DNA of 64,000 bases, taken from an uncultured Gammaproteobacteria bacterium (GTDB lineage Bacteria > Pseudomonadota > Gammaproteobacteria > JAAEPA01). The position numbers and the translations under genes were made by a program. The stretch spans positions 282,926 through 346,925 of the forward strand of contig CAVSWL010000005.1 in assembly GCA_963731655.1 (NCBI GenBank), in the 5' to 3' direction. Under the pieces are notes generated by a model. It was given only the letters and a program-made list of their open reading frames with translations. It searched no databases and had not been told where the DNA came from. Positions 26,708 through 49,453 of this stretch are shown here, in pieces. Within the stretch, counting starts at the first letter, position 1. Every line of letters begins with the position of its first letter.

Positions 26708-29700
26708 ATGTGCCGTATGATCATCGCCCTATGCCTATTTCTCACGGCTGTATTTCTGGCCACTGACCTGCTAGTTCCGCTTGGCAAGGCACTGATCGTC
26801 CTCTACATCCTGGTAGTTCTCTTGGCGGGGCAGACCGGAACGCCTAGGATCCCCATTGCCTTTGCCGCGCTCAGCACGCTTTTCATCGGCATCGGCTGGG
26901 TCGTGGCGCCGGTGATCCATACCAGCGACCCCGCCTTCGTCGCCACGAACCGTTTGTTGGCTCTTTTCGTGGTCTGGGTAATCGCCGTCACGATTGCATT
27001 TCGGCTACGGACGGAACAAGCGCGATCCGCGGCCGACGAATTCACTCAAGCCATTCTCGAATCCACGCCTATCGCCTCCGTCGTGGTGGATGGGGAGGGC
27101 AGGATCGTACGGATTAATCGGCAGACGGAAGAGCTTTTCGGCTATGAGCGTGACGAGCTTCTCAACCAACCCGTGGAAATGCTCGTTCCCAGTGTAAACC
27201 GCGAGCGGCATGCGCGGGATCGGCTGACGTATCTGTCGCGGCCGCGAGCGCGGCCCATGGGACACGGACGTGCTTTGCTCGGACGGCGTAAGGACGACAG
27301 CACATTCCCCGTCGAAGTCGCGTTGAATCCCGTGGAGACGTCACAGGGTGTTCTCGTACTGGCGGCGGTAGTGGACATCACCGAACGCGAGAACGCCCGA
27401 GCAGCGCTGCAACAAAGCGAAAGACGTTTTCGGTCCACGTTCGAAAACGCCGCGGTGGGTATCGCACACGTCGCCATCGATGGCCATTGGTTGCGCGTCA
27501 ATCAGCGGCTTTGCGAGATCGTCGGTTACCCAGCACACGAACTGCTCGAGAAAACCTTCCAGGACATCACCCATCCCGACGATCTCAAGCAGGACTTGAC
27601 CTATGTTGGCCGGCTGCTCGCCGGCGAGATCGATAAGTACAGCATGGAGAAGCGGTATATCCACAAAGACGGCTCGATCGTGTGGATCAATCTGACGGTA
27701 TCGCTGGTACGTGATGAACGCGGTGAACCCAAGTACTTCCTCCCGGTGATCGAGGAGATTTCGCAGAAAAAGCGTGCCGAGCAATTCATGGCAGAGAGTA
27801 AGCGACAGTTGGAACGACAAACCAACGAACTGGAAACTTTATACCAAACGGCGCCGGTTGGCTTAGTCGTTGTTGATCGAGATCATCGAATCCTCAAGAT
27901 TAACCAATGGCTTGCGAAAAGTAACGGAGGTCAGGTACAGAACTGTATTGGCCGAAACTGCCGAGACTGCCGTGAGTTGCTGCCCGATATCGCAGAGCAA
28001 TTCGAAGCATTGATTGAACAGGTCTTTAACACCGGTCAGCCTGTGTTCGATGCCGAGATTCGCAGTGATATCTCCGAGAGTGATGTCGCGAAACGATTTT
28101 TTCTAGTTAATTATTCACCGATACACGCACCCGACGGGAAGGTGGATGCGGTTCAATGTGTCCTGAGCGATATTACGGACCGAATGCGCGCAGAGCAAGC
28201 GAAACGTCGTCGGGAACGTCGTTTTAGGGTCATGGCCGATTCGATCCCCGAGATCATCTTTACCAATAGAGCGGATGGCGCTTGCGATTATCAGAATGCG
28301 CGCTTCTATGAACTCACCGGCATGGCCTCGGGAGAGGCGCAAGGGTGGGGATGGACGGGGGCCTTGCATCCCGAAGACGCGCAGCGGTGCCGGGAGCAGT
28401 GGACAGCATCGGTACGTTCCGGCGCGCCCTATGAATGCCGCTATCGATTGCGACTGGCAGATGGCGAGTATCGCTGGTTTATGGCGCGTTCGCGCCCACT
28501 CTTCAATCGGGAAGGCAGGCTCATCCAATGGTTCGGCGCAGCCACCGATATCCACGACCTGGTGTTGGCTGAGAAGGCGCTAAGCGAAGCCCGTGCGGCG
28601 GCCGAAGTGGCCAACCGCGCCAAGAGCGAGTTTCTCGCTAACATGAGCCATGAGATCCGCACGCCCATGACCGCCATCATGGGTTTTTTGGATGTGTTGT
28701 TGTCGCATACCCCAGAACCGGACGATCTGCAATCCCTGCCAATTATCAAACGTAACGCTGCGTATTTGCTGGAGTTGATCAACGATATTCTGGATCTGTC
28801 CAAGATAGAAGCACACAAGTTGGAGTTCCACAAGACGCGTTTTTCTCTCCAGGAATTGGTCTCAGACGTCCATGGATCGATGAGCGTGTGCGCACGAGAA
28901 AAAGGCTTGCCGTTGAGCATCGAGTATGATGGACCTATCCCAGAAACCCTCGAAGGCGACCGTACGCGGGTCCGGCAGATTCTCATGAATTTAATCACCA
29001 ATGCGATTAAATTCACCGACCGGGGACAGGTACGAGTCATCATCCGATTTTTGTCCGATGAGGTCAATCCGGGAATTCAGTTCCAAGTGACCGATACCGG
29101 CATCGGAATCAAACCGCACGAATTGCGGAGGCTGTTTCAACCGTTTACCCAAGGCGATGGTTCCACCAAACGACAGCAGGGTGGCACGGGGCTGGGTTTG
29201 ACCATCACCAATCGTCTGGTCGAGAGTCTCGGTGGGCAGATTGCTGTGGATAGTCAACCCGGTAAAGGCAGCACCTTTACGGTAACGCTTCCCACCGCAG
29301 CTGTTAAGGAGCTTACCCTGATTGAGGCGGATAACTCTGTATTGTACGCGAGTTCGCCGTTCGCGGATCTGCGCAACCTGCAGCACAACTGCCGGGTGCT
29401 GGTGGTCGATGATCGAAGCGATATTCGCCTGTTGATTCGGCATTTCTTAGAGGAGGCGGGTGCCGAGGTTGCGACGGCCGGGAATGGCCGCAAGGCCATT
29501 GAGGCAATTGATGAGGCGCACAAGCAAGGCCAACCATTCGATGTGATTGTCATGGACATGCAAATGCCGGTGATGGATGGTTATACCGCCACGGCCGAGT
29601 TGCGCGGGCGAGGTTTTAAACGTCCCATCATCGCCTTGACGGCAAGCGCCATGAAGGGGGAACGAGAAGCCTGTCTTGCGGTTGGATGTGACGCTTATCT

Positions 29701-30196
29701 TAGCAAACCCATAACCCAAAGCGATTTAGTGGCCGCGGTCGCCCGATACAGTAGCGACGAGGACTATCGGGCATCGATCGCTAAGCACGCCCCAGAGCAC
29801 GATGCACCAACTCAGCAGCGAAACGACACGTGTCGCAAAGGAAATCCGTCACGCATTCTCGTGGTGGATGATCATAAGGATGCGGCCAATGCCACCGGAA
29901 CGTTACTGGAGCTGCTCGGTTACCAGGTGCGTGTGGCGCTCGATGGTGAATCGGCGCTCAACTGCGCACGCACGTATAGACCCCATGTCGCACTCTTGGA
30001 TTTGGGCTTGCCGGATATGCACGGTCATGATCTGCTCAGAGCGCTCAAGGCGCAAGGCTTGACTGCGACCCACTTCATCGCCTTGTCGGGTCGTAGCGAA
30101 CCAGAAGATGAAACGCAGGCGTTTGCTGTAGGTTTTAACCATTATCTGGTAAAGCCGTTGGATCTGGAGCGATTGAAATTGCTGTTGGCTGACTGA
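26708..30196 (+). CDS. multi-PAS hybrid sensor histidine kinase with two C-terminal receiver domains
   Basis: N-terminal membrane region, several PAS/PAC repeats, HisKA box SHEIRTPM, HATPase_c (GLGLTITNRLVE), and two REC domains (VLVVDD...DMQMP; ILVVDD...DLGLPDM). Confidence 0.85.
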   Translation: MCRMIIALCLFLTAVFLATDLLVPLGKALIVLYILVVLLAGQTGTPRIPIAFAALSTLFIGIGWVVAPVIHTSDPAFVATNRLLALFVVWVIAVTIAFRLRTEQARSAADEFTQAILESTPIASVVVDGEGRIVRINRQTEELFGYERDELLNQPVEMLVPSVNRERHARDRLTYLSRPRARPMGHGRALLGRRKDDSTFPVEVALNPVETSQGVLVLAAVVDITERENARAALQQSERRFRSTFENAAVGIAHVAIDGHWLRVNQRLCEIVGYPAHELLEKTFQDITHPDDLKQDLTYVGRLLAGEIDKYSMEKRYIHKDGSIVWINLTVSLVRDERGEPKYFLPVIEEISQKKRAEQFMAESKRQLERQTNELETLYQTAPVGLVVVDRDHRILKINQWLAKSNGGQVQNCIGRNCRDCRELLPDIAEQFEALIEQVFNTGQPVFDAEIRSDISESDVAKRFFLVNYSPIHAPDGKVDAVQCVLSDITDRMRAEQAKRRRERRFRVMADSIPEIIFTNRADGACDYQNARFYELTGMASGEAQGWGWTGALHPEDAQRCREQWTASVRSGAPYECRYRLRLADGEYRWFMARSRPLFNREGRLIQWFGAATDIHDLVLAEKALSEARAAAEVANRAKSEFLANMSHEIRTPMTAIMGFLDVLLSHTPEPDDLQSLPIIKRNAAYLLELINDILDLSKIEAHKLEFHKTRFSLQELVSDVHGSMSVCAREKGLPLSIEYDGPIPETLEGDRTRVRQILMNLITNAIKFTDRGQVRVIIRFLSDEVNPGIQFQVTDTGIGIKPHELRRLFQPFTQGDGSTKRQQGGTGLGLTITNRLVESLGGQIAVDSQPGKGSTFTVTLPTAAVKELTLIEADNSVLYASSPFADLRNLQHNCRVLVVDDRSDIRLLIRHFLEEAGAEVATAGNGRKAIEAIDEAHKQGQPFDVIVMDMQMPVMDGYTATAELRGRGFKRPIIALTASAMKGEREACLAVGCDAYLSKPITQSDLVAAVARYSSDEDYRASIAKHAPEHDAPTQQRNDTCRKGNPSRILVVDDHKDAANATGTLLELLGYQVRVALDGESALNCARTYRPHVALLDLGLPDMHGHDLLRALKAQGLTATHFIALSGRSEPEDETQAFAVGFNHYLVKPLDLERLKLLLAD

Positions 30197-32671: not shown

Positions 32672-33741
32672 GCAATATGAACCGTAGAACGTTTCTTAAG
32701 ACCGGAGGCGCGGCGCTGGCCGCCAGCAGCCTACCATTAAGTCTGGTGGAAATCGCCTTCGGCAAGTCGGAACCTGAGAGCTTCACCTTTGCCTTTATCT
32801 CCGACTCCCACATCACCCATATCCAGGGCAAGGAATTTGTGCGCAATTGGGATCGCGGGTTGGTCCGTGCCGTGGCGGAGACCAATCTGCTCGATCCGCG
32901 TCCGGACTTCGTCTTCTACGGTGGCGATATAGCTCAGCTCGGCATTCCCGAGGAGATCGATCACGGGCTGGAACTGCTTAGCGCTCTACGCGGCGATGTG
33001 CATTACGTCATGGGGGAGCACGATTATTACTTCGATTTGGGCGAACACTGGCGCGAGCGGCTCGGTCCCGATCACTACAGTTTCGACCACAAGGGCGTAC
33101 ACTTCGTGGTGCTGAATAGCATTCTCACCTATGACGACTGGACCTTTGACAAGTGGGACACGCCGATGCGGCGCATGAAGGAGATGGCGCGTCTGGATAA
33201 CCCCCAGGGATCGCCGTTCATGGTCGGCGACAAGCAACGCGATTGGCTCCGCAAGGATCTCGCCACGGTCAGCAAGGACACGCCGATCGTGGTGATGTCG
33301 CATTCGCCGCTACAGAAGATCTACAAGGGATGGAACTTCTGGACCGAGGACGCGGGGCAGGTACAGGAACTGCTCAAACCTTTCAATAAGGCGACTGTTC
33401 TGTATGGCCACGTGCACCAGATTCAGTACAACCAGATCGGCAACATCAGCTTCAACTCCGCCATGGCCACCGCCTGGCCCTGGCCCTACCCGGCCAGTTT
33501 CACCCAGGAAGCCAGCTATCTGCCTAAGCTGACGGTGGAAATGAACCGCGCCGATCCGTTTTTCGAACGCGACGCCACCGGCTGGCAGTTCATCAATTTG
33601 CAAACCGGCGATGCGGATGTCCACTACGTTTTACCCGACAACCGCAATCGTATCGTTGCCTTCAATGAAAACAAAGGCTACCCGGTCGACACCTATTATC
33701 AGCCGCAGTCAGACCGCATCCCGCCGCAGCACCACTTCTGA
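32668..33741 (+). CDS. Tat-exported calcineurin-like metallophosphoesterase
   Basis: Twin-arginine motif NRRTFLK. MPE motifs DSH, GGD, GEHDYY, NSILT, GHVH. Start overlaps the ccp stop (ATGA), suggesting translational coupling. Confidence 0.8.
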   Translation: MSNMNRRTFLKTGGAALAASSLPLSLVEIAFGKSEPESFTFAFISDSHITHIQGKEFVRNWDRGLVRAVAETNLLDPRPDFVFYGGDIAQLGIPEEIDHGLELLSALRGDVHYVMGEHDYYFDLGEHWRERLGPDHYSFDHKGVHFVVLNSILTYDDWTFDKWDTPMRRMKEMARLDNPQGSPFMVGDKQRDWLRKDLATVSKDTPIVVMSHSPLQKIYKGWNFWTEDAGQVQELLKPFNKATVLYGHVHQIQYNQIGNISFNSAMATAWPWPYPASFTQEASYLPKLTVEMNRADPFFERDATGWQFINLQTGDADVHYVLPDNRNRIVAFNENKGYPVDTYYQPQSDRIPPQHHF

Positions 33742-34257
33742 ATCGAGGCAAAGGAAACTGACATGAACATGATCGATCATCTTACACAACACCTCTTTAT
33801 TATGGCAGCTTTGTTGATAGCGCTTGGTCAAGGGGCACGGGCCGACGAATTCACCGGGTCCGATCTAGAACGCTGGAAACAGGAATACATGACCATGGTG
33901 AAAAAAGGCGAGCAGCTGTTTCACGGGGGTCTCCCAAGCAAGAACACGGTGTCCTGCGACCAGTGTCATCCAGACGCTGCCAATACACACCCGGAGACTT
34001 ACCCAAAATTTCAGCAGCAGCTCGGGAAGGTGGCCGTACTAGGCGAGATGGTCAACTGGTGCATCGAAAACCCGCTGGAGTCCGACCCGCTGGCGCTAGA
34101 TGATCCACGCATGACCGCCCTACAGGCCTATATCACGGAACAGAGGCGTGAAGTGCCGCTGGTACCCGGCACGCACTAGTACGTAAGTGCCGACCCGATA
34201 GAGTTACACCCCGGCACTACATTTACTTAACCTGAAATCTAGCGATCCGTAATCACC
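32692..34257. repeat. segmental duplication, copy 1 (MPE + cytochrome c genes)
   Basis: ~97% identical to 40559-42113. Confidence 0.8.
33763..34179 (+). CDS. small periplasmic mono-haem c-type cytochrome
   Basis: Signal peptide and a single CDQCH haem-binding motif; 22 bp downstream of the MPE gene. Confidence 0.7.
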   Translation: MNMIDHLTQHLFIMAALLIALGQGARADEFTGSDLERWKQEYMTMVKKGEQLFHGGLPSKNTVSCDQCHPDAANTHPETYPKFQQQLGKVAVLGEMVNWCIENPLESDPLALDDPRMTALQAYITEQRREVPLVPGTH

Positions 34258-35373: not shown

Positions 35374-35814
35374 TCATTCTTCCGGGGGGCCGGTGAGGGT
35401 GTAGGTAAGACGCAAAGTTGTTCCGGGGTACACGAATTCGGCAGCATTCAGGTGATCCAAGAGGTGCTGGATCGCTCGGTTCGAACGCGGGTTGGCCAGT
35501 GTGTGCAACCGTACCTCTAACACCCCCGCGGCCGCATCCGGATAAATGTCCGCGTCCGATCGGAACAGATCGCGGAGCAAGGAACGCGCCTTGTCGGCGT
35601 GCGACATCTTTTCTCGCACAATCATCGCCAACGCCGTTTCCGCGCGGTACGCCACCAGCTTGACCGTGTCCGTCAGTCGTTTGCGGCTCGGAGCCAAACG
35701 CTGGAACTTCTCGCCTTCCGGCAATTCGTCCCATTCCCAATGTTTGGGCGTGGACGGCATCCGTTCTTTCAAGACGGTCAATTCGTGCTCCAACTGCTCG
35801 ATCTCTTCCTGCAT
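35374..35814 (-). CDS. hypothetical coiled-coil protein, possibly a mobile-element remnant
   Basis: 146 aa from the ATG. The frame is open upstream to ~36031 without a further ATG. Lies between a MITE-like element and an IS110 fragment. Confidence 0.35.
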   Translation of the reverse strand: MQEEIEQLEHELTVLKERMPSTPKHWEWDELPEGEKFQRLAPSRKRLTDTVKLVAYRAETALAMIVREKMSHADKARSLLRDLFRSDADIYPDAAAGVLEVRLHTLANPRSNRAIQHLLDHLNAAEFVYPGTTLRLTYTLTGPPEE

Positions 35815-36381
35815 TTTGCCTTTCTCGCGCTCCCATTTCGTGATGTCCGACTCTTCAGCTTGCGGGTGAAGGGTCAGGGCTGCAAAGCGAGCTTGACGGT
35901 GCGTCAGTTTGCTCTTGACCGAGCGAAATTGCCGGTCCAGTTCCCGCCTGGCCGGGTTGACTACCGGCCGCGTGGTCCCAGAAATCGCTTCCGTTCCGTA
36001 TTCACTAAGTGCATCCAGGGCTAACTGAGGATTTTAGGATCATTGATGGGAGCCCTCGATTCGGGTAAAAAGGGGGGGGCGTCTATATTTTCTATACTCA
36101 TGCTCGCGTTGAGGCTAGAGGTGCGGCCCCGTGTTAAAGTGTAGCGGCTCAAATATGTTCGGCGATGATCGATCCTATCGTGGTGATTAGACCCCGGCAA
36201 CAAAACGGATCTGGGGGGGGTTGGAGTTGCACCTCTGATAGTTTCCCACCCCTTGGTGGTGAACGCACGGTAAAGTAGTTCTTAAGGCGGAGTGTCAGGT
36301 AGCCCCAGCCGCCTGTCGATACGGGTTTAAAGTAGGGTAGGCACGTCCCCTTCTCGATAGGTCCTTTGAGGAGGTGTCATC

Positions 36382-36618
36382 ATGATAGAGCCGTTAGTTC
36401 GGTGCTGTGCGGGATTGGATGTACACAAAGCGGTGGTGGTCTGCACAGTACTTCAAGAACACCCAAAAGGAGAGTTGAGTAAGGAAACGTGCGAGTATGC
36501 CACGTTTATTGGCGAAGTAACCGTACTGGCCAGCTGGTTAGCGTCGCTAGGCGTTGAATTGGCGGTCATGGAGAGTACGGGTGTTACTCTCGTCCGCTCA
36601 CGTGACAGGATAAAATAG
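36382..36618 (+). pseudogene. IS110-family transposase N-terminal fragment
   Basis: ...CAGLDVHKAVVVCTVL...LASLGVELAVMESTGV matches the IS110/DEDD transposase N-terminus (GIDVxK...VAMEATG). Truncated at 78 aa. Confidence 0.6.
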
Positions 36619-38139
36619 ATGACTGCCAACTCAAACTCGAATCAAAACTCGGCCAAGGAGAAGGTCGCCGACCGTTGTACTAGCGGCGTCGAAGGCCTCG
36701 ACGATATCCTGGCCGGCGGCCTGCCGCGCAACTGTTTCTATCTGGTGCAAGGCGACCCCGGTTCGGGCAAGACCACCTTGGCCTTGCAATTTCTCCTTGA
36801 AGGAGTGCGGCGAGGCGAAAAGGTCTTCTACATCACGCTTTCGGAAACGAAAGCGGAACTGCTGATGGTCGCCCGATCGCACGGTTGGTCGCTGGATAAC
36901 ATTCCACTACTGGAGATGTCGGCTATCGAATCTCTTCTTCGCCCGGAAGCGCAGACCACCGTGTTTCATCCCTCGGAATTGGAACTGACTAAGGTAACGA
37001 AGCTATTACTCGACGAGACGCGCGCGGCCGAGCCCTCGCGAATTGTATTTGATTCACTCTCCGAGTTTCGCTTAATGGCGGAAGCGCAGTTGCGTTATCG
37101 GCGGCAATTATTGAATCTCAAGCAGGAGTTCGCCAAGCTGCAAAGCTCAGTGCTGCTCCTGGACGACAAGATGAGCGGCCAGGGGATCCAAGCAGATCCG
37201 CACGTGCTCAGCCTCTCACATGGAGTCATAGAGATGGAACAGCTCGCGCCTGACTACGGCACTTCGCGCCGGCGTTTGCGCGTGCTCAAAATGCGCGGCG
37301 TAAAGTTTCGCGAGGGCTATCACGATTACACAATCGTGACTGGTGGCCTGCGTATTTTCCCAAGGCTGATTGCGGCCGAACATCACAGGGCGTTTGTGCA
37401 TGACGCAGTATCCAGCGGGATAGATGAGTTGGATAAGTTGTTGGGCGGTGGATTAGACCGCGGAACGACTACACTAATGCTGGGCGCCGCAGGTACGGGC
37501 AAATCCACTTTGGCGATGCAATTCGCGGCGCAGATGGCCGCGCGAAACGAGCCCGGCATGATTTTCACCTTCGACGAAAGCCTCGGCATTATGCTCGGCC
37601 GGGCGAAGGCCCTGGGCTTCGATTTGGAAAAGCACTTGCGAAGCGGTGTCGTGACTGCGCATCAGGTTGACCCTGCTGAACTATCGCCCGGCGAGTTCGC
37701 GGTCCGAGTGCGGCAGGGCGTGGAAGCCGGGGCCAAGCTTGTCATCATCGATAGTCTCAATGGTTATCTCAATGCCATGCCGGGCGAGAAATATCTCAAT
37801 ATCCAGCTACATGAACTTTCGTCGTATCTGAACCAGCAAGGCGTCATCACTATTCTGATTCTGGCACAACACGGATTGATCTCTCTGGCCGTATCACCGG
37901 TCGATCTCAGCTATTTGACGGATACGGTGGTGTATCTCCGGTATTTTGAAGTAGCCGGAGAGGTAAAGCAGGCGCTCGCCGTAGTTAAGAAGCGCAGTGG
38001 TCGTCACGAAAAAACGATTCGTGAATTCAAGTTGGAATCCGATCGTGGGATTCGCGTTGGTGAGTCGTTGAAAGAATTTCATGGCGTTTTGACGGGCGCG
38101 CCAGTGTTCGAAGGCACCGATAAACGAATGATGAAATAA
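36619..38139 (+). CDS. KaiC-like double-domain RecA-superfamily ATPase
   Basis: Two tandem KaiC domains, each with Walker A (GDPGSGKTTLALQF; GAAGTGKSTLAMQF) and Walker B. AGGATAAAA SD. Confidence 0.85.
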   Translation: MTANSNSNQNSAKEKVADRCTSGVEGLDDILAGGLPRNCFYLVQGDPGSGKTTLALQFLLEGVRRGEKVFYITLSETKAELLMVARSHGWSLDNIPLLEMSAIESLLRPEAQTTVFHPSELELTKVTKLLLDETRAAEPSRIVFDSLSEFRLMAEAQLRYRRQLLNLKQEFAKLQSSVLLLDDKMSGQGIQADPHVLSLSHGVIEMEQLAPDYGTSRRRLRVLKMRGVKFREGYHDYTIVTGGLRIFPRLIAAEHHRAFVHDAVSSGIDELDKLLGGGLDRGTTTLMLGAAGTGKSTLAMQFAAQMAARNEPGMIFTFDESLGIMLGRAKALGFDLEKHLRSGVVTAHQVDPAELSPGEFAVRVRQGVEAGAKLVIIDSLNGYLNAMPGEKYLNIQLHELSSYLNQQGVITILILAQHGLISLAVSPVDLSYLTDTVVYLRYFEVAGEVKQALAVVKKRSGRHEKTIREFKLESDRGIRVGESLKEFHGVLTGAPVFEGTDKRMMK

Positions 38140-38143
38140 GACG

Positions 38144-39763
38144 ATGCCGCTGACCAAATCAGAGGAGCGGATCATCATCATGGCGCCGATAGGACAAGAC
38201 GCCAGAGCTATGGCCATGCTGCTAGAGCCCGAAGGTTTTCAGCCTGAGATTGTGAGTGGTCCCGCGCAATGTTGCGAAAAACTTTCTGATGCGGGCGCGG
38301 TATTGTTGACCGAGGAAGCGTTGGAACTGCCGCAAGTTGCCGACCTGATCGATACTCTCGAGGCGCAGCCGCCATGGTCTGAATTGCCGCTAATCGTGTT
38401 GACTAGTGGTGGAGAATCTCGGCTGGCTAAGTTGTTGGATTTGCTGGCCGAAGCAGCTGGAAGTGTTACCCTGCTCGAGCGCCCGATGAGCGCAGCCACT
38501 CTGCTGCGTTCGGTTCAAGTGGCCCTGCGTTCACGACGCCGCCAATATCAGGTGCGTGACTTGCTTGAGCGTCAACAGATCCTGCGCGGCGAAGCAGAAG
38601 AAGCTAACCGCATTAAAGATGAATTTCTCGCCACTGTCTCTCATGAGTTACGCACGCCGCTGAATGCAATTTTGGGATGGGCGACGCTGATCCGCCAAGC
38701 CAGAGCGGATGAGCATACCCTCGCTCGGGCGATTGAAACGATTGAACGCAATGCGAAAGCCCAAGCGCAACTGATCGAAGACCTGCTGGATGTTTCACGA
38801 ATGATCTCAGGCAACCTACGGCTCAACGTGGAACAAATCGACCTTGTATCGGTTATCAAAGCAGCCGTCGACGTCGTCCATCCGGCGGTGGAAGCCAAGG
38901 GTATTCAATTGGATTTGGATCTGGACTTCGTCGACCGCTTGGAAGCGGATGCCCATCGCCTGCAACAAGTTGTTTGGAATTTTCTGTCCAATGCAGTCAA
39001 GTTTACGGGCGCTGGCGGACGAGTTCAGATCAGGCTGGAACAAGTTGAGTCTCAAGCTCGAATCACAGTGAGCGATACTGGCGAAGGCATCGATCCCGAA
39101 TTCCTGCCGCACATCTTCGAACCGTTCCGGCAGGCTGACGGCACGAGCACGAAACGAAGTGGCGGACTGGGGTTGGGGCTCGCCATCGCGCGCCGTCTCG
39201 TCGAAATGCATGGCGGAACCATCTCCGCGAAAAGTGAAGGCGCAGGGCGCGGTTCGACTTTTACGCTCGGTATTCCCATGAGACCAGTTCACGAGACATT
39301 ACCGGCACTAGCGCGTACTTCCGAAGGTTCGCTGTTACACACCTCCAGTTCAGACACGGACCTGCCGAGTCTTACTGGCGTAAGGATTCTGGCGGTCGAC
39401 GATGAAAAAGACACGCGCGAGATGGTCAAAGAAGTGCTCGAGCAATTCGGCGCGAATGTTTTGTCTGCCGGGTCAGCCAGGGAAGCGTTCGCCGCACTTC
39501 ATGACTGGAACCCGGACGTCATTGTGTGTGACATCGGAATGCCGGGCGAAGACGGCTATTCCTTGATTCGGAAAGTCAGACAGTTGGAATCTCACCGGGA
39601 TAGAAACACACCTGCAATTGCACTGACGGGATTTGCACGCCCGGAAGATCGCAAATGCGCACTAGCCGCCGGCTATCAGATGTTCATACCGAAACCCGTC
39701 GAGGCGAATCAATTAGTCAGCACCATAGCCAAGCTGATTGGGACAGCTAATGGCCAACACTAA
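38144..39763 (+). CDS. hybrid histidine kinase: N-terminal pseudo-receiver, HisKA-HATPase core, C-terminal receiver
   Basis: N-terminal REC-like fold lacking the acidic pocket ([12 protein letters not shown] in place of DD; AVLLTEE in place of the phospho-Asp). H-box [14 protein letters not shown], HATPase_c ([16 protein letters not shown]), C-terminal REC (ILAVDDEKD...[11 protein letters not shown]). Starts 4 bp after the kaiC-like stop. Confidence 0.8.
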
Positions 39764-40032: not shown

Positions 40033-40400
40033 TTAGGTGAACAACCTATAACCCTCCAGATCGAGATAAATTCTCTGGAACAAATGCTGAATATTACCGA
40101 TCCCATAGCAACGACGTTGAAGCACCTTGTTCTTGTTGTTCAGCCCCTCGACAAAGCCACTGGTATGGCGGTTATGGAAATAAATTGGTGATGTCCTCCA
40201 TTCGCGCGTCCACTCGCTCGATTGCCCTGTTATTTTTAAGCCGCTAAGAAGTCGAGTCGACGACAACATTAAATTTACGATCCAGCATCCTGGCTATCGT
40301 TTTATTTTGAAATTTCTCTAGCGCGGTCAGCGGTGCGGGGATATTACGCTTCTTTTTCATGACGACGGTCACCGAGTGGGCGTATCCGATATATGGGGGA
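40033..40400 (-). pseudogene. ISL3-family transposase C-terminal remnant (frameshifted)
   Basis: ...HTSGFVEGLNNKNKVLQRRCYGIGNIQHLFQRIYLDLEG matches the ISL3 C-terminus (NGxVEGxNNKIKVLKRRAYG). The upstream segment is in another frame. Confidence 0.55.
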
Positions 40401-40612
40401 GGGCTATTTAGGAGTTTAAAAGGAATCCCGCAAATAACAAAATCTTACTTTCAAATCAGCTTAAAATGCTTATGTACTCCATGAATGCCTCGTTTTTATC
40501 TATTTTAAAGGATTTTTCTATCTATTAAATTTCTCTCCCTCACTTATCAGATGCGCCCTTTCTTAAGACCGGAGGCGCGGCGCTGGCCGCCAGCAGCCTA
40601 CCATTAAGTCTG

Positions 40613-41608
40613 GTGGAAATCGCCTTCGGTAAGTCGGAACCCGAGAGCTTCTCCTTTGCCTTTGTCTCAGACTCCCACATCACCCATATCCAAGGGAAGG
40701 AGTTCGTGCGCAATTGGGACCGCGGGCTGATTCGTGCCGTGGCGGAGACCAATCTGCTCGATCCGCGCCCGGACTTCATCTTCTACGGTGGCGATATAGC
40801 TCAGCTCGGCATTCCCGAGGAGATCGATCACGGGCTGGATCTGCTTAGCGCTCTACGCGGCGATGTGCATTACGTCATGGGGGAGCACGATTATTACTTC
40901 GATTTGGGCGAACACTGGCGCAAGCGGCTCGGTCCCGATCACTACAGTTTCGACCACAAGGGCGTACACTTCGTGGTGCTGAATAGCATTCTCACCTATG
41001 ACGACTGGACCTTTGACAAGTGGGACACGCCGATGCGGCGCATGAAGGAGATGGCGCGTCTGGATAACCCCCAGGGATCGCCGTTCATGGTCGGCGACAA
41101 GCAACGCGATTGGCTCCGCAAGGATCTCGCCACGGTCAGCAAGGACACGCCGATCGTGGTGATGTCGCATTCGCCGCTACAGAAGATCTACAAGGGATGG
41201 AACTTCTGGACCGAGGACGCGGGGCAGGTACAGGAACTGCTCAAACCTTTCAATAAGGCGACTGTTCTGTATGGCCACGTGCACCAGATTCAGTACAACC
41301 AGATCGGCAACATCAGCTTCAACTCCGCCATGGCCACCGCCTGGCCCTGGCCCTACCCGGCCAGTTTCACCCAGGAAGCCAGCTATCTGCCTAAGCTGAC
41401 GGTGGAAATGAACCGCGCCGATCCGTTTTTCGAACGCGACGCCACCGGCTGGCAGTTCATCAATTTGCAAACCGGCGATGCGGATGTCCACTACGTTTTA
41501 CCCGACAACCGCAATCGTATCGTTGCCTTCAATGAAAACAAAGGCTACCCGGTCGACACCTATTATCAGCCGCAGTCAGACCGCATCCCGCCGCAGCACC
41601 ACTTCTGA
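40613..41608 (+). CDS. metallophosphoesterase paralog, 5'-truncated (no start codon or complete Tat signal)
   Basis: ~97% identical to 32668-33741, but the copy begins within the signal peptide. The track ORF starts at an in-frame GTG. Confidence 0.55.
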   Translation: MEIAFGKSEPESFSFAFVSDSHITHIQGKEFVRNWDRGLIRAVAETNLLDPRPDFIFYGGDIAQLGIPEEIDHGLDLLSALRGDVHYVMGEHDYYFDLGEHWRKRLGPDHYSFDHKGVHFVVLNSILTYDDWTFDKWDTPMRRMKEMARLDNPQGSPFMVGDKQRDWLRKDLATVSKDTPIVVMSHSPLQKIYKGWNFWTEDAGQVQELLKPFNKATVLYGHVHQIQYNQIGNISFNSAMATAWPWPYPASFTQEASYLPKLTVEMNRADPFFERDATGWQFINLQTGDADVHYVLPDNRNRIVAFNENKGYPVDTYYQPQSDRIPPQHHF

Positions 41609-41629
41609 ATCGAGGCAAAGGAAACTGAC

Positions 41630-41986
41630 ATGAACATGATCGATCATCTTACACAACACCTCTTTATTATGGCAGCTTTGTTGATAGCGCTTGGTCAAGG
41701 GGCACGGGCCGACGAATTCACCGGGTCCGATCTAGAACGCTGGAAACAGGAATACATGACCGTGGTGAAAAAAGGTGAGCAGCTGTTTCACCGTGGTTTA
41801 GCAAGCAAGAACACGGTGTCCTGCGACCAGTGTCATCCAGACGCTGCCAATACACACCCGGAGACTTACCCAAAATTTCAGCAGCAGCTCGGGAAGGTGA
41901 CCGTACTAGGCGAGATGGTTAACTGGTGCATCGAGAACCCGCTGGAGTCCGACCCGCTGGCGCTAGATGAGATGATCCACGCCTGA
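41630..41986 (+). CDS. mono-haem cytochrome c paralog, C-terminus altered by a 5-bp tandem duplication
   Basis: Identical to 33763-34179 except for a GATGA duplication near the 3' end that changes the frame and truncates the last ~20 aa. Confidence 0.5.
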   Translation: MNMIDHLTQHLFIMAALLIALGQGARADEFTGSDLERWKQEYMTVVKKGEQLFHRGLASKNTVSCDQCHPDAANTHPETYPKFQQQLGKVTVLGEMVNWCIENPLESDPLALDEMIHA

Positions 41987-42102
41987 CCGCCCTACAGGCC
42001 TATATCACGGAGCAGAGGCGTAAGGTGCCGTTAGCACCGGGTACGCACTAGTACCCAAGTGCTGATCCGATGGAGTTTAATTTCGGCACGATATTTTCTT
42101 AA

Positions 42103-42297
42103 GCTCGAATCCCAGCGATCTCTTTTAGCGAGACGGATGCGTATGCCGACGGTTACCTGAGCAAGAAAGAGGTCAATGAGCATCCCGCTCTGATTGCACA
42201 TCGGGATCGCGGCGACCAGAATGGCGACAACCGGATCGACCTGACTGAATTCAGTGCCTTCAAAGCGAGCGGTTTCAGGACGTCGCCCACGCAATAA
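42103..42297 (+). pseudogene. EF-hand calcium-binding protein C-terminal fragment
   Basis: ...DAYADGYLSKKEVNEHPALIAHRDRGDQNGDNRIDLTEFSAFKAS contains a canonical EF-hand loop (DxNxDxxIxxxE). No start codon. Confidence 0.3.
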
Positions 42298-44338: not shown

Positions 44339-45997
44339 ATGGTCATACATAACCGCCAGATCGCCAATCTATTTGCCAGACTAGCCGACCTGATGGAGTT
44401 GGATGGCGCCAATCCGTTTCGCGTCCGCTCCTACCGCCAGGCGGCACAGACCATCGCCGGCCTTTCCGATACCCTCGTCAAGCGGGTGCGAAACGGTGAA
44501 GATCTGACCGACCTGCCAAGTATCGGCAAAAGCATTGCGGAAAAGATCGCTACCATTGTGGAAACGGGGCGCTTGCCCCAGCTCGAGGAACTCGAAAAAC
44601 GGATGCCTGCGGAGCTCAGCGAGGTGATGAGGCTATCTGGCCTCGGATCCCAACGGGTAAAACTCTTGCACCAGGATCTGGGCGTCGATAGCCTGGCGGA
44701 TCTGGAGCGGGTGGTCGAGCGCCACGAGGTGCGCGAGCTTCCCGGCTTCGGCGCCAAGACCGAGCAGAGCATCGGCGAACGGCTGGCCCGCTGGGAAGGG
44801 GCTGAGCGACGCACGCCACTGCCGCAGGCGGAAGAAATCGCCCGGTCCCTGCTGGACTATCTCAAGGCTATCGACGGAATTAAGGATCTGACGATCGCAG
44901 GCAGTTATCGTCGCCGCAAGGACACCTTGGGCGACCTCGATATCCTGGTCACGGCCACGCAGGGCGCACCGGTAATGGAGCGATTCGTCGGCTACGACGA
45001 AGTGCGGGAGATTGTTACTCAAGGCCAAGCCCGTTCCACCGTGATCCTGAGCTCCGGCATGCAGGTGGATCTGCGGCGGGTGCCGCAGCTTAGCTACGGC
45101 GCGGCGCTGCATTATTTCACCGGTTCCAAGTCTCACAACATCGCGGTGCGCCGGATGGGTGTCAGGAAAGGTTTGAAGATCAACGAATACGGTGTGTTCC
45201 GAGGCGACAAGAGGGTCGGCGGACGCACCGAGGAGCAAGTCTACGAAAGCATCGACCTCCCTTATATCGAGCCGGAGCTACGCGAGAACCAAGGCGAGAT
45301 CGATGCTGCCGGTGAAGGCAAACTGCCGCATCTGGTTACGCTCGCGGACATACAAGGTGATTTGCATGCCCACACTCGGGCCAGCGATGGCTACGACAGC
45401 CTGGAGACCATGGCGGAAGGCGCCGCCAAATGTGGCTATGCTTATCTTGCCATCACCGACCATTCGCAGCATCTGACCGTGGCCCACGGCCTGGATGAAC
45501 GACGCCTTGCTGCGCAGATCAACGAAATCGATCGGCTAAATGACAAGCTGGATGGCCGCATTGAGCTGCTTAAGGCGATCGAATTGGACATCCTCGAGGA
45601 TGGCACCTTGGATCTTCCGGATACGATCCTGAAACAGCTCGACCTTCGGGTGTGCTCAGTCCATTACAAATTCGATCTACCGCGAAACAAGCAGACCGAG
45701 CGTATCCAGCGTGCCATGGAAAGCCCCTACTTCAATATCCTGGCTCATCCCACCGGACGCCTGATCGGGGAGCGTGAGGCTTATGAAGTGGATCTGGAAA
45801 AGCTCATCGAAGCAGCGGCCAAGCACGGCTGCTTTCTAGAGGTGAATGCGCAGCCAAAACGCCTGGATCTGGATCCTGCGGGGTGTCGGTTGGCCAAGGA
45901 GGCGGGCGTAAAGGTCGCCATCTCTACCGACGCGCCAGGCATGGCGCGTAGCGTTGACGGGCGCTGGCAACGGAAGGCGAAAGCCGGCGGGAAGTGA
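44339..45997 (+). CDS. polX: DNA polymerase X family protein (Pol-beta-like nucleotidyltransferase + PHP phosphoesterase)
   Basis: HhH motifs, GSYRRRKDTLGDLDILV NT-transferase motif, and a C-terminal PHP domain (DLHAHTRASDG...AITDHS). Confidence 0.85.
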   Translation: MVIHNRQIANLFARLADLMELDGANPFRVRSYRQAAQTIAGLSDTLVKRVRNGEDLTDLPSIGKSIAEKIATIVETGRLPQLEELEKRMPAELSEVMRLSGLGSQRVKLLHQDLGVDSLADLERVVERHEVRELPGFGAKTEQSIGERLARWEGAERRTPLPQAEEIARSLLDYLKAIDGIKDLTIAGSYRRRKDTLGDLDILVTATQGAPVMERFVGYDEVREIVTQGQARSTVILSSGMQVDLRRVPQLSYGAALHYFTGSKSHNIAVRRMGVRKGLKINEYGVFRGDKRVGGRTEEQVYESIDLPYIEPELRENQGEIDAAGEGKLPHLVTLADIQGDLHAHTRASDGYDSLETMAEGAAKCGYAYLAITDHSQHLTVAHGLDERRLAAQINEIDRLNDKLDGRIELLKAIELDILEDGTLDLPDTILKQLDLRVCSVHYKFDLPRNKQTERIQRAMESPYFNILAHPTGRLIGEREAYEVDLEKLIEAAAKHGCFLEVNAQPKRLDLDPAGCRLAKEAGVKVAISTDAPGMARSVDGRWQRKAKAGGK

Positions 45998-46472
45998 CTC
46001 GAGGGTGAAAGTCCTTGGAGACCTGATGACGGGAACTCTAGCCGAACAGCAAGGGTGTCCACGCGAGGTGGAATCTGAAGGAAGCTGAAGGCAAACGTCT
46101 GGCCCGAGGCACACGAACGCATGTGAGGCATCGTCTTGTGGGTGAGGAAGCGTCGGTGTGCGAAGCCGAAGTCATCCGGAACGAGGTGGTGTATATGCGG
46201 CGGGGATGGACGGAAAGTCACGCGTCTTACCTGGGAGATCTGTCCACTTGCCTTGTGCTAGAGCAACCGAGAGGTTGGTCGATGGGTGGGCAGAAGTGAG
46301 CAGACGGGATAGTAGGTGAGTGTCAGGCGAAGCTAGTGAGGCACTCCGAGACCGAAAGGTGGAGCAAACGGATAGGCCGAGCGTAACGACACTCACTGAA
46401 GGCCTGAACAAGTGAACCGGCCCGATGCCGGAACCTCGATGCGGAAGGAGACACCGTTATGACAACTGAGAT

Positions 46473-47025: not shown

Positions 47026-49239
47026 TCATGAAGAGTGGTTAAACAAGTCGAGCTGATTATCTACTACATTGATTCTTAGTCCTTTTCTGCGGCCCAGATA
47101 AACGTGGACGGCTTTGAGTTCGCCATTCTTTACACGCTGCAACACCGTTTGGCGCGAGACCCCCAGGATTTTAGTCGCTTCCTGCATAGTCACGTAATTC
47201 TCCGGAGCCTGTTCGACAAAGCGATTGCGCAGTTCCTCGGTGATCCGGATTTGCCACGGTGCACCCGGCGTAACCTGCTCGCCGGCAACGAATCCGTCGT
47301 TCACCCATCGGTGCAGCGTCGAAGGTGCGAGGTCCAGGATCTTAGCCGCTTGTTTGATACTCACCAAATCACCTTCGGGTGACTCGATCGGTGGTTCGAA
47401 ACGGAGGATATTCCAATGTCGGCGTAAATTGCCGACGAGGTTGGCGGTGAAGCGCAATCCACGCGCCGTGGTTCGACCCTGTCTGTTCAGGATACCGGCG
47501 ATGACGGTGTCCGGATAGTGAGTGGCTAATCGGCGGAGCAGTTCGATGGTGTCTTCATCCGTGCGCACGGTGGCTGGTCGAGAACGTGGGAGGTTGACAT
47601 CGAGTTCGGTCAGCAGTCCACCGCGCCAGCGCAGGGTCAGATGCGCACGCTTTTCGTCGCGACATACCGTGATGATGACTTCCTCGAGCAGAGTACGCAG
47701 CAGTTCCTTTTGGTCGCGGCATGTTGTGGTGGGTGCACACCACACGCGTTTGAGATCGTTACCGAACGAAAGGATGGCACGCCGTTCATCGGCGCTCAGT
47801 GTTTTGGGTCGTTGGGTTTCTCGACGCTCAAGCTCGGCTTGGGCCTGTTCGAGGTGACGTAACCGTTGTTCCCATTCGGCCTCCAGGCCGCGTGCGACTA
47901 GCCTATTTTCGGGCTCTACAGATCGGTAGCGGCGTTCGGCCCGCTCGGCCTCATAGCGAGCGCGTTCGAGCGCCAAGCGCCATTGTGCCAAGGCGGCATC
48001 GTGGTTGGCTTCTATCTGCTCAGCGGCGATCAATGCGGCCTTCACACCGGCGGGCGAGAGTGCCTCAACAAAGGCCTCGGTGACAGCCTGATCGATTTGC
48101 ACACCGCCGACGTTGAGGCAATAGACGCCTCGACCCTCGACGATGTCTTTGCCTGCACAATGATAGCCTGGGGTGTGGTTTCTCCCGCGGTAATGGGTGC
48201 GCAGCCGGCGTCCGCAATGACCACAGGTTGCCAAACCTTGCAGCAAGGCCGCCCCTTCTCTCACCGCGCCGCCACCTTTGTGGGGTTGTGGGCGGGTATT
48301 ACTGGCAATACGGGTTTGATTGGCTTCATAGGTCGCCCAGTCGATATAACCTTCATGGTGTTCGTGGATGAGCACACCCCATTGCGACTGAGGGAGTTTG
48401 CGGACGCGTTTTCTCACCCGTCCGTGCTCATCGACATAGCGCTCATGTCGCGTTTTACCATAGACATAGGCTCCCGCATACACTGGGCTGCTCAGCACGC
48501 TGTGGATCGCATGATAGGTGGGTGCGACCCACTGGATGTCACGCAACTGGATCGACTGCAGAGGAAAGTCCAGACCCTCAGAACGGAACCATAACCAGAC
48601 CCGACGCACTGAGCCGAACTCTTCGAAGCGCTCAAAAACTGTGCGTATAGCGCCCGTGACCGCCTCATCGGGATGCAAGCGCACCTCACCGTCGGCTTCG
48701 CCCCAGACCAGGCCGACCGGCAGCCCTCGGCGCAGTTCCCCGCGCGTGGCTTTGTTGCGAATGCCGCCATCAAGACGGGCTCGCAGGATATGAAGCTCTG
48801 CTTCAGACATGGTCCCTTTCAACCCGAGCACGAGCCTGTCGTTGAACTGCGCCGGGTGATAGAGGCCATCGGCGTCACCAATCAGAGTATCGGTCATGGC
48901 ACACAGATCGAGCAACTGATACCAATGGGCGTTATTGCGTGCCAAGCGCGAGACCTCGAGGCCGAGAATGATCCCGACCCGTGCCAGCGCTACCTCAGCG
49001 GTCATGCGGGCGAAGCCGGTGCGCGCCGTGACGCTGGCACCGGACAGGCCCAGGTCTTCGTCAATGATCGTCACCTGCTCAGGTTGCCAACCGAGGGCGC
49101 AGGCCTTGTCGAGCAGCGCATATTGACGTTCGGTGGACTCGCGGTTGTATTCGACTTGGGTGGTGGTGGATTGGCGCACATAGACAAAGGCGGCGCGGTT
49201 TAAATGATTCGGCGTGACTTTGCTTGTTTCAGTCATCAT
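47026..49239 (-). CDS. large serine recombinase (resolvase catalytic domain, recombinase domain, zinc ribbon, coiled coil, C-terminal HTH)
   Basis: N-terminal AFVYVRQSTTTQ with catalytic Ser; zinc-ribbon cysteines CGHCGRRL...YHCAG; C-terminal MQEATKILGVSRQTVLQRV HTH. AGGAGAAAG SD before ATGATG. Confidence 0.85.
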   Translation of the reverse strand: MMTETSKVTPNHLNRAAFVYVRQSTTTQVEYNRESTERQYALLDKACALGWQPEQVTIIDEDLGLSGASVTARTGFARMTAEVALARVGIILGLEVSRLARNNAHWYQLLDLCAMTDTLIGDADGLYHPAQFNDRLVLGLKGTMSEAELHILRARLDGGIRNKATRGELRRGLPVGLVWGEADGEVRLHPDEAVTGAIRTVFERFEEFGSVRRVWLWFRSEGLDFPLQSIQLRDIQWVAPTYHAIHSVLSSPVYAGAYVYGKTRHERYVDEHGRVRKRVRKLPQSQWGVLIHEHHEGYIDWATYEANQTRIASNTRPQPHKGGGAVREGAALLQGLATCGHCGRRLRTHYRGRNHTPGYHCAGKDIVEGRGVYCLNVGGVQIDQAVTEAFVEALSPAGVKAALIAAEQIEANHDAALAQWRLALERARYEAERAERRYRSVEPENRLVARGLEAEWEQRLRHLEQAQAELERRETQRPKTLSADERRAILSFGNDLKRVWCAPTTTCRDQKELLRTLLEEVIITVCRDEKRAHLTLRWRGGLLTELDVNLPRSRPATVRTDEDTIELLRRLATHYPDTVIAGILNRQGRTTARGLRFTANLVGNLRRHWNILRFEPPIESPEGDLVSIKQAAKILDLAPSTLHRWVNDGFVAGEQVTPGAPWQIRITEELRNRFVEQAPENYVTMQEATKILGVSRQTVLQRVKNGELKAVHVYLGRRKGLRINVVDNQLDLFNHSS

Positions 49240-49453
49240 CTTTCTCCTGCCTTGGGGCTTGCGGCGTTGCCGTCTGTGCAATCAGACGAGCCAGCACGTC
49301 GACGACGGCCAGGCGTTGTTCGTCGTTCAGTTGTGTCCACACCGCTTCGTGGGGGCAGGGGATGTCCAAGAACATCAGATGTCTTTGTTGCACAGTGGCG
49401 CTCCTCTGAGTTGGTGATACGTTGTCGAAGAGCATTGACGAGAGAGCCGGCAT
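49229..49453 (-). CDS. small ORF (74 aa) whose stop overlaps the recombinase start
   Basis: Stop TGA overlaps the recombinase ATGATGA (gat gat gac tga / atg atg act). Acidic C-terminus. Could be an accessory or directionality-factor-like protein. Confidence 0.4.
   Translation of the reverse strand: MPALSSMLFDNVSPTQRSATVQQRHLMFLDIPCPHEAVWTQLNDEQRLAVVDVLARLIAQTATPQAPRQEKDDD

Follow-up and report, generated by a model that had tools for sequence, protein, structure and literature searches.

A KaiC-like ATPase gene paired with a pseudo-receiver hybrid histidine kinase, a probable KaiB-less signalling module in an uncultured gammaproteobacterium

Introduction

KaiC homologs without KaiA and KaiB are common outside the cyanobacteria, and their signalling is largely unknown. 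Here, we analysed a stretch of 64,000 nucleotides (nt), hereafter referred to as the window, from an uncultured Gammaproteobacteria bacterium (assembly GCA_963731655.1, contig CAVSWL010000005.1, positions 282,926 to 346,925), in which a gene for a KaiC-like ATPase is followed by a gene for a hybrid histidine kinase. These two genes probably make up one operon-like signalling module of the KaiB-less type, in which a KaiC with a Ser-Tyr phosphosite (SY) is paired with a kinase named Nt_HK, and the N-terminal domain of the kinase, a pseudo-receiver (PsR), would read the KaiC-like protein. A first description of such modules appeared in 2011 (PMC3164672) and a partial characterisation in 2022 (10.1101/2022.01.26.477890), and the window holds a further member. 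New here are the firm assignment of the N-terminal domain to the receiver fold, in which Glu57 takes the place of the phospho-acceptor, the lack of a Pfam model for so large a family, the near-absolute synteny of the PsR with a KaiC-like gene, and the conservation of KaiC and PsR far beyond that of the kinase core.

Results

The N-terminal domain of the kinase has a receiver fold

Pfam finds nothing in the isolated N-terminal domain even at E<=10, kinase residues 1-150 are likewise unmatched, and a PDB sequence search with the kinase gave no chain spanning residues 1-120. The AlphaFold2 model of the domain, based on 31 homologs, has a mean predicted local distance difference test score (pLDDT) of 85.6 and displays the receiver order β1-α1 to β5-α5, followed by a long helix. 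When this model was compared with the PDB using Foldseek, the top 50 matches were all receivers (e.g. BfmR, YycF, FixJ, CheY and DctD) with a probability of 1.0, and the target-normalised TM score was about 0.7-0.79 for single-domain receivers. The structures of KaiA, CikA and ShkA are absent from these best 50 matches. Alignment of the PsR family profile to a canonical receiver profile with hhalign gave a probability of 97.3% and an E-value of 1.8e-11 over 119 columns.

The residues that make a receiver work have been exchanged. Mapping from CheY by MAFFT and hhalign places D12/D13 at A14/P15, S56 at T56, D57 at E57, T87 at T87, and K109-P110 at R113-P114. Because the canonical catalytic set is replaced (A14/P15, E57, R113) and Pfam has no match, the domain is classed as a pseudo-receiver. 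Judging from Ala-Pro, Glu57 and Arg113, it cannot be phosphorylated in the canonical way. A canonical receiver with a shifted phospho-Asp was considered and rejected, since both methods put Glu57 at Asp57 and neither T56 nor E57 is an Asp. The KaiB-like fold suggested in 2011 was also rejected, as the model and the fold search give a receiver. The predicted structure thus firmly identifies a receiver-derived pseudo-receiver, and not the PAS or KaiB-like domain that earlier papers had suggested.

The pseudo-active site has been remodelled, not eroded. In the close-family alignment (31 sequences), A14, P15, D19, T56, E57, E58, E91, E112, R113 and P114 are invariant. In a broader alignment, W78, S79, P82, R113, P114 and R131 are invariant, D19, E58 and E112 are kept in at least 90% of sequences, and E57 is variable. 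A change from Asp to Glu at the phospho-Asp position is phosphomimetic in some response regulators. The original prediction, made from the DNA letters alone, had described a domain that folds like a receiver and lacks both the phospho-Asp and the acidic pocket. The fold and the missing phospho-Asp stand, and the search for a canonical acceptor Asp returned Glu57 at its position; the missing pocket holds only for the canonical Asp-Asp pair, since D19, E57, E58, E91 and E112 are conserved in the close family.

The pseudo-receiver accompanies a KaiC-like gene

A genome scan with one genome per species found 182 PsR loci, 80 of which were fetched. A KaiC-like gene, with 65-77% identity to that of the window, lies directly upstream on the same strand in 79 of these 80 loci, and the single exception (L076) is a match 139 nt from a contig end. 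A PF06745 gene is directly upstream of the PsR in all three long metagenome contigs. Distant PsR homologs (30-43% identity) were found on 228 plasmids of Rhizobiales, Sphingomonadales, Azospirillum and Burkholderiales; a gene annotated as kaiC or as 'ATPase domain-containing protein' is directly upstream in each of the seven plasmid loci inspected. The plasmid counts of PsR and KaiC-like genes are near-equal per genus (Sinorhizobium 60/60, Agrobacterium 51/51, Sphingobium 18/18). The PsR is essentially never found apart from a KaiC-like gene, and a survey of gene neighbourhoods, which the original prediction had put forward as a check, therefore turns out in its favour.

The hosts of the genome loci are mostly Pyrinomonadaceae and other Acidobacteriota, Nitrospira and Verrucomicrobiota (Udaeobacter), with a few Proteobacteria, and the closest relatives of the window module belong to Acidobacteriota, Nitrospirota and Verrucomicrobiota. 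Some Proteobacteria do carry the module, but its original description as proteobacterial is too narrow. The patchy spread over phyla, the carriage on plasmids and the insertion sequence (IS) context fit frequent horizontal transfer. In a HMMER search of 1.84 billion representative proteins, the PsR profile matched 7087, 4277 and 1855 clusters (50% identity) at E<=1e-3, 1e-10 and 1e-30, respectively, of which the weakest class (E<=1e-3) may include true receivers. It is thus a family of 4277 clusters at E<=1e-10 for which there is no Pfam model. The PsR is N-terminal in all but one of the best 150 hits.

The genes beside related modules (L002, L084-L090) are often stress-related, and include DUF892, BON and DUF883 proteins, catalase, HtpG, DnaK, a cold-shock protein, a glutathione S-transferase and a Kup transporter. 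These neighbours fit the stress phenotypes that have been reported in Pseudomonas.

KaiC and the pseudo-receiver are conserved beyond the kinase core

Compared with the window, KaiC has a median identity of 72% and the PsR one of 62%, against 31% for the DHp and CA domains of the kinase. At locus L043, for example, the PsR is 64% identical to that of the window and the core 29%. A search with the N-terminal domain returned 278 proteins at 57-75% identity, in which it is joined to differing downstream domains. The architectures that follow the PsR range from a plain PsR-HisKA-HATPase arrangement to hybrids of more than 1000 amino acids with multiple PAS, GAF and DUF4118 domains, and further downstream types are HisKA_3, HWE/HisKA_2 and, in one fragment, EAL. 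In a crude tblastn count, at least 45 of the 78 informative loci have a receiver, either as part of the kinase or encoded directly behind it. Pairwise identities of KaiC and of the PsR are correlated (r=0.80, Mantel p=0.001). In this pattern, KaiC and the PsR behave like a conserved input cassette that is joined to exchangeable kinase cores.

The KaiC-like ATPase retains its nucleotide-binding motifs and Ser431

The KaiC-like protein consists of two RecA-type domains, CI (approximately residues 21-249) and CII (approximately residues 260-500), and solved KaiC structures align with it end to end (E-values of 2e-55 to 1e-50). It falls below the NCBIfam equivalog cut-offs for circadian KaiC, with 244.1 against 408 bits for NF006799 and 165.9 against 546.25 bits for TIGR02655. 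The Walker A and B motifs are complete in both halves, as had been predicted, and the Lys of Walker A and the Asp of Walker B are unchanged in each half across 80 aligned family members, as are the Gly and Thr of Walker A in CI. The CI segment 'LSET' is kept in 78-79 of these 80 relatives.

At the phosphosite, HMMER aligns 'vdLSYltdt' of the window protein with 'shISTitdt' of KaiC (1u9i/2gbl). In the 80-sequence alignment, column 431 has Ser in 75, Thr in four and Ala in one, and column 432 has Tyr in 77 and Phe in three; the Ala and one Phe stem from a KaiC paralog that was picked up in locus L013. The sites other than SY are Thr-Tyr (TY), in Agrobacterium, Azospirillum and one genome locus, and Ser-Phe (SF), in Sinorhizobium and Mesorhizobium. 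The window protein therefore differs from the circadian pattern of a Ser431-Thr432 dual phosphosite and two Glu-Glu pairs: S431 is kept, T432 is replaced by Tyr, and the catalytic pairs are Ser-Glu in CI and Asp-Glu in CII.

The C-terminal tail carries a motif of its own, unlike the A-loop and the C-terminal tail of cyanobacterial KaiC. Its core, G.P.[FYW].G, is found in 73 of 79 family members, and column counts show that the hydrophobic pair at 504-505 is kept. This tail is a possible docking or partner-binding peptide.

A distant branch, represented by loci of Sinorhizobium meliloti pSymA (L088) and of a Mesorhizobium ciceri plasmid (L089), has Gln in place of the catalytic Glu of CI ('LSQT'), Ser-Phe at the phosphosite and, in the PsR, 'THE' in place of 'TEE'. 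In L088 a separate response-regulator gene follows the kinase. This branch may be a sub-type with an inactive CI ATPase.

Searches for partners of the KaiC-like protein were negative. Using tblastn with a Synechococcus elongatus KaiB query, no match was found in the window or within 6 kb of 83 related loci, and Pfam recognises neither KaiA nor KaiB in any small open reading frame (ORF) from 34 to 43.4 kb. The claim that neither gene is nearby agrees with this outcome.

The hybrid kinase and the gene junction

The kinase has all the features of a hybrid HisKA-type kinase, namely the H box, the N, G1, F and G2 boxes and a fused canonical receiver. HisKA (residues 158-222), HATPase_c (269-380) and Response_reg (415-528) all score above the Pfam cut-off, and the C-terminal receiver retains D419-D420, D463, T495 and K517, in agreement with the HisKA/HATPase core and real receiver of the original prediction. 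The AlphaFold2 model of the full-length kinase has a pLDDT of 86.0. In this model DSSP assigns a single helix to residues 117-184, so that α5 of the PsR runs on into helix 1 of DHp and includes His167; the invariant S130-RRRQYQVRD139 motif lies on this helix. The PsR is thus predicted to be mechanically coupled to the phospho-acceptor helix. By Pfam, the PsR is the sole domain upstream of DHp, and since the window kinase has no other sensor domain, whatever the PsR senses is its only input.

Between the last base of the kaiC-like stop codon (38139) and the start codon of the kinase gene (ATG, 38144) is the gap of 4 nt that had been noted before, and the kinase is 539 amino acids long, also as noted. 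A scan for terminator-like sites found none between the two genes. Junctions between kaiC-like and kinase genes are, approximately, short or overlapping throughout the family. The junction in the window is consistent with co-transcription of both genes. Membership of the module in an anti-phage defence system was rejected, as PADLOC models gave only partial matches to generic P-loop, HATPase and REC domains, the best being mad8 with 49 bits over positions 24-127 of 314.

The module lies among transposase remnants

Three ORFs abut on the + strand, encoding 78, 506 and 539 amino acids (Table 1). The first is a weakly matching IS110 remnant, the homology of which ends at about nt 36585; its stop codon abuts the kaiC-like ATG, which is preceded by an AGGA Shine-Dalgarno-like site at 36607-36610. 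With an ISL3 remnant on the other side, the two IS fragments that had been reported around the pair are both present as partial matches. The module and three transposase remnants lie inside a 6.3-kb stretch bracketed by the two copies of a direct repeat, which are 96.2% identical over 1562 nt (blastn); the cytochrome c ORF is shortened in the second copy (118 against 138 amino acids). The remnants and the duplication fit either horizontal acquisition or local scrambling. Foreign origin is unsupported by composition: the GC content of the module is indistinguishable from that of its flanks, and only the kinase is slightly low in GC at third codon positions (GC3, 0.57 against 0.63-0.75 in other sampled host genes). 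The rest of the window is chromosomal, with the nuo operon, AcrAB-type efflux genes and pentose-phosphate enzymes. NuoCD shares 95% identity with a soil-metagenome contig and about 70-72% with named Gammaproteobacteria, Chromatiaceae and Nitrosococcus, and the host is probably an uncultivated gammaproteobacterium; exact-sequence look-ups of NuoCD and of the KaiC-like protein gave no record.

Table 1 Positions of the module, its motifs and the surrounding elements in the window.
Feature	Position	Strand	Basis
KaiC-like ATPase, 506 amino acids, two RecA-type domains	36619..38139	+	PF06745 x2, E 1.5e-71
CI Walker A, GDPGSGKT	36751..36774	+	Motif location, alignment of 80 family members
CI catalytic pair, Ser75-Glu76	36838-36849	+	E77-E78 in S. 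elongatus KaiC (alignment)
CI Walker B, IVFDS	37042-37056	+	Motif location
CII Walker A, GAAGTGKS	37483..37506	+	Motif location, alignment
CII catalytic pair, Asp319-Glu320	37570-37581	+	E318-E319 in S. elongatus KaiC (alignment)
CII Walker B, VIIDS	37741-37755	+	Motif location
Phosphorylation-site position, Ser431-Tyr432	37909..37914	+	HMMER alignment to S431-T432 of KaiC (1u9i/2gbl)
Conserved C-terminal tail motif, G-x-P-x-[FY]-x-G-x4-[IMVL]-[ML] (GAPVFEGTDKRMMK)	38095..38136	+	Family column counts
Spacer of 4 nt, GACG, between kaiC-like stop codon and kinase ATG	38140..38143		Sequence read
Hybrid histidine kinase, 539 amino acids, PsR - long helix - DHp (HisKA) - CA (HATPase_c) - receiver	38144..39763	+	Pfam, AlphaFold2
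N-terminal pseudo-receiver, residues ~9-145	38168..38578	+	AlphaFold2, Foldseek, hhalign
PsR signature motifs: A14-P15..D19, T56-E57-E58, Q75-P-P-W78-S79-x-L-P82, T87-x-G-G-E91, E112-R113-P114, S130-RRRQYQVRD139			
HisKA/DHp domain, phospho-acceptor His167, SHELRTP at 38639-38659	38615..38809	+	PF00512, E 9.7e-18
HATPase_c: N box, G1 (DTGEGI), F (FEPFRQ), G2 (GGLGLGLAI)	38948..39283	+	PF02518, E 2.3e-32
Canonical C-terminal receiver: D419-D420, phospho-acceptor D463, T495, K517, IPKPV motif	39386..39727	+	PF00072, E 1.3e-23; CheY alignment
IS110-family transposase, 5' remnant, ORF of 78 amino acids	36382..36618	+	NCBIfam NF033542, residues 9-68 = model 1-59 of 343, weak, E 1.4e-5
ISL3-family transposase, 3' remnant, last ~40 residues of model	40033..40269	-	PF01610, 203-240 of 240; NF033550, 330-369 of 370
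Transposase_29 (PF21804), C-terminal remnant	35374..35814	-	Model 422-560 of 562, E 5.4e-40
Direct repeat copy 1, 1.56 kb, Tat-signal metallophosphoesterase and SoxA/TsdA-like cytochrome c	32692..34247	+	blastn, Pfam
Direct repeat copy 2, starts 24 nt inside the phosphoesterase ORF (5'-truncated)	40559..42120	+	blastn

Intact IS110 elements encode a guide ('bridge') RNA upstream of the transposase ORF. The stretch 36200-36381, upstream of the truncated IS110 ORF, is non-coding and is empty in Rfam at the gathering threshold, and an Rfam scan found no RNA element near the module. The sole Rfam match in the window is a group II intron (D1-D4, RF02001, 100 bits) at 46058-46225 (+). This intron directly follows a PolX-like gene (44339-45997), and the gene of a large serine recombinase (47026-49281, -) is close by; as the + strand has no long ORF behind it, the intron may be ORF-less or truncated. 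Between about 11000 and 14000 the GC content is 0.37-0.40, against about 0.55 elsewhere, which suggests a separate foreign insertion. An unrelated hybrid histidine kinase of 1162 amino acids is encoded at 26708-30196 (+), with about four PAS domains, HisKA, HATPase_c and two receivers; a weak short tblastn match of the PsR α5 region to 27367-27471 (40% identity, E 0.003) probably reflects resemblance between helical linkers. At 51874-54849 (-), an ORF of 991 amino acids joins a transaldolase domain to a transketolase that is complete with its N, pyrimidine-binding and C-terminal domains, which is unusual for a single polypeptide.

Discussion

A proposed mechanism and its alternatives

From comparative evidence we infer the following docking mechanism and direction of signalling. 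The KaiC-like protein, with all ATP-binding motifs of its two rings retained and Ser431 as its one conserved phospho-acceptor, would form a hexamer, and its slow ATPase and the autophosphorylation state of Ser431 would signal elapsed time, growth phase or energy status. To this hexamer the PsR of the kinase dimer would bind in a state-dependent manner. Binding would be relayed by the continuous α5-DHp helix and switch the kinase between autokinase and phosphatase, and the phosphoryl group would pass from His167 to Asp463 of the fused receiver and on to an Hpt protein or a response regulator encoded elsewhere. Docking of the PsR on the KaiC-like ATPase is the most likely arrangement, since synteny and co-conservation give strong comparative backing to this part of the original prediction; the idea itself is not new.

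Several points weigh against this proposal. The CI ATPase activity may be altered, because Ser-Glu stands where S. elongatus KaiC has a Glu-Glu catalytic pair. The native region upstream of the kaiC-like gene has been replaced by the IS110 remnant; as the IS110 homology ends about 30 nt before the kaiC-like start, the native promoter is probably gone. A promoter scan found no promoter-like site on the + strand, and its two sites, against 3.2 expected, are both on the minus strand and uninformative. No Hpt or cognate response-regulator gene lies downstream of the kinase at the window locus. The correlation between KaiC and PsR identities is partly due to shared phylogeny and to the distant plasmid clade, and neither synteny nor co-conservation gives the direction of signalling. 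Moreover, the binding experiment made in Pseudomonas (see below) may concern a non-homologous docking domain, because a putida-group KaiC, PSEEN2280, has 'SS' and belongs to a different KaiC group (PMC3164672); the authors of the experiment call the domain 'PAS'.

The direction could be the reverse, with the kinase as the input and the KaiC-like ATPase as the regulated part. The PsR would then be KaiA-like and, for example, bind the C-terminal tail of the KaiC-like protein and thereby adjust its ATPase or its autophosphorylation; the kinase itself would respond to other signals. Many family members have PAS, GAF or DUF4118 sensors between PsR and DHp, from which it follows that these kinases integrate other inputs. 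The conserved tail motif is common to the KaiC-like proteins, and KaiA binds a C-terminal tail of cyanobacterial KaiC. KaiA too has a pseudo-receiver (PMC12632262). However, the window kinase has no sensor besides the PsR and so nothing to relay to KaiC. The adjacent kinase is also the only conserved neighbour of the KaiC-like protein, for which neither an effector domain nor another partner on the output side is known. KaiA contacts KaiC via its C-terminal domain, not via its N-terminal PsR. We regard the reversed direction as unlikely. It is still less probable that the PsR is a small-molecule sensor or an intramolecular autoinhibitor, as with the c-di-GMP-binding PsR of ShkA or the quinone-binding PsR of CikA, and works independently of its KaiC-like neighbour. 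Bacterial PsR domains do bind ligands and inhibit kinase cores (PMC12632262), and the pseudo-active-site loops, invariant in the close family, could form a ligand pocket. But such a sensor leaves unexplained both the near-absolute synteny with KaiC-like genes across phyla and plasmids and the joint conservation of KaiC and PsR despite an exchanged kinase core.

The window copy might also be a silent or decaying passenger in a region scrambled by mobile elements. The three transposase remnants and the duplication around the module, the IS110 fragment in place of the native 5' region, the missing + strand promoter-like site, the lack of a response-regulator or Hpt gene downstream and the low GC3 of the kinase would all suit such a fate. 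Yet both ORFs are full length with all catalytic and family-invariant residues intact, the Shine-Dalgarno-like site and the 4-nt junction are kept, the overall GC content equals that of the surroundings, and read-through from upstream of the IS110 remnant could drive transcription, so that decay seems rather unlikely to us. Hardly any weight can be given to the idea that the module belongs to a genuine circadian or hourglass oscillator of the KaiBC type, the kaiB of which lies elsewhere in the genome. It would agree with the full-length KaiC homology, with the retained Ser431 and with the occurrence of KaiBC timers in some proteobacteria (cited in 10.1101/2022.01.26.477890). It is at odds with the negative kaiB searches of the window and of the related loci, with the scores below the circadian KaiC cut-offs, with the change of T432 to Tyr, and with the absence of kaiB from the whole of those genomes that have an SY, TY or SF kaiC in the Nt_HK context (PMC3164672).

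A module in which the PsR reads KaiC thus remains our preferred reading. We put forward only tentatively, as one possibility, its extension to a portable, co-evolving timer or energy-state cassette, in which the KaiC-like ATPase and the PsR are set on many transmitter cores (HisKA, HisKA_3, HWE and, in one fragment, EAL). The PsR would then be a receiver frozen in a phosphomimetic-like form by Glu at the phospho-Asp position, and would read the state of KaiC via the C-terminal tail (GxPx[FY]xG-x4-hydrophobic pair) or the region of phospho-Ser431. If so, the 'PAS' or 'KaiB-like' domain of earlier papers is an uncurated receiver-derived family with thousands of members. The candidate docking surface offers E57, W78 and R113, together with Ser431 and the C-terminal tail of KaiC, as targets for mutation, which would serve to work out how a non-circadian KaiC controls two-component signalling.

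Comparison with known systems

The closest description is the 'second kaiC context' of the Ramlibacter tataouinensis genome, Rta_04330 (KaiC) and Rta_04340 (Nt_HK), reported by De Luca et al. in 2011 (PMC3164672). In that work, a kaiC of the SY, TY or SF pattern systematically precedes the specific kinase Nt_HK, the two genes were found to be co-transcribed by reverse transcription PCR, and the Nt_HK kinases were proposed to be a KaiC-interacting family analogous to SasA. For the N-terminal domain RtaNt, weak similarity was noted both to a receiver (19% identity, E 5e-5) and to SasA-N/KaiB. The window likewise has kaiC and then the kinase on the same strand, an SY phosphosite and no kaiB found, and the relatives collected here show SY in the majority, TY and SF. 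The likeness to RtaNt is one of description only, that of a highly conserved domain resembling a divergent receiver. The place of the window in this family rests on the matching of its defining features and on relatives from Burkholderiales plasmids (L085). In contrast to Ramlibacter, the window copy lies among IS remnants, and its N-terminal domain has a receiver fold rather than the KaiB/SasA-N similarity suggested in 2011.

Terrettaz et al. (bioRxiv 10.1101/2022.01.26.477890) detected KaiB in none of 1255 Pseudomonas genomes and saw a kinase beside virtually every KaiC-like gene. The KaiC-like protein physically binds the adjacent kinase, for which residues 1-138 of PP_3835, called 'PAS', are enough; the phosphorylation of KaiC depends on the age of the culture, and stress phenotypes were seen in mutants (10.1101/2022.01.26.477890). 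The pairs of P. putida (PP_3834/PP_3835) and P. protegens CHA0 resemble that of the window in having a KaiB-less KaiC-like gene in an operon with a (hybrid) histidine kinase, and the binding N-terminus of PP_3835 is about the same size as the PsR of the window. Their roles are in stress and stationary phase, not in circadian timing (10.1101/2022.01.26.477890). By this analogy, the window module is probably concerned with stationary-phase or stress adaptation rather than with a circadian clock. A search with a proteobacterial PsR profile recovered no Pseudomonas sequence, and none was among the plasmid hits; the Pseudomonas binding data would support docking here by analogy only.

The N-terminal domain of SasA has a KaiB-like thioredoxin fold. 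That of the window kinase is a receiver, not thioredoxin-like, and the two resemble each other in function only: in both cases, the N-terminal domain of a kinase docks, or would dock, on KaiC, the state of which governs the output (10.1101/2022.01.26.477890, PMC3164672). SasA differs further in that its gene is not beside kaiC (PMC3164672), in that it works in the KaiABC oscillator, and in that it is not a hybrid kinase. S. elongatus KaiC (PDB 2GBL/1U9I) shares with the window protein two KaiC domains, both P-loops, Walker B, Ser431 and a similar length. The window protein departs from it in the Tyr at position 432, in Ser-Glu in CI and Asp-Glu in CII, and in a short and different tail, and no KaiA or KaiB partners were found for it.

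The PsR of CikA is C-terminal and binds KaiB and quinones, the PsR of KaiA binds quinones, and the PsR of ShkA is central and binds c-di-GMP (PMC12632262); a kaiC-linked PsR class is not mentioned in the passages of this review of bacterial pseudo-receivers that the analysis covered. The window domain is like these in having a receiver fold without a working phospho-acceptor and, by prediction, in regulating through protein or ligand binding. The original prediction had likened it to the KaiA N-domain and the CikA pseudo-receiver. As a pseudo-receiver it does belong with them, but the analogy of docking on Kai complexes is loose, because the CikA domain binds KaiB and the KaiA domain binds quinones, and SasA is the closer functional analogue. 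The window PsR also has a signature of its own (AP, TEE, QPxWSxLP, ERP and RxRQ) and no Pfam model. If the cassette reading is true, its docking on KaiC would be convergent with that of SasA and KaiA, and built on a different fold.

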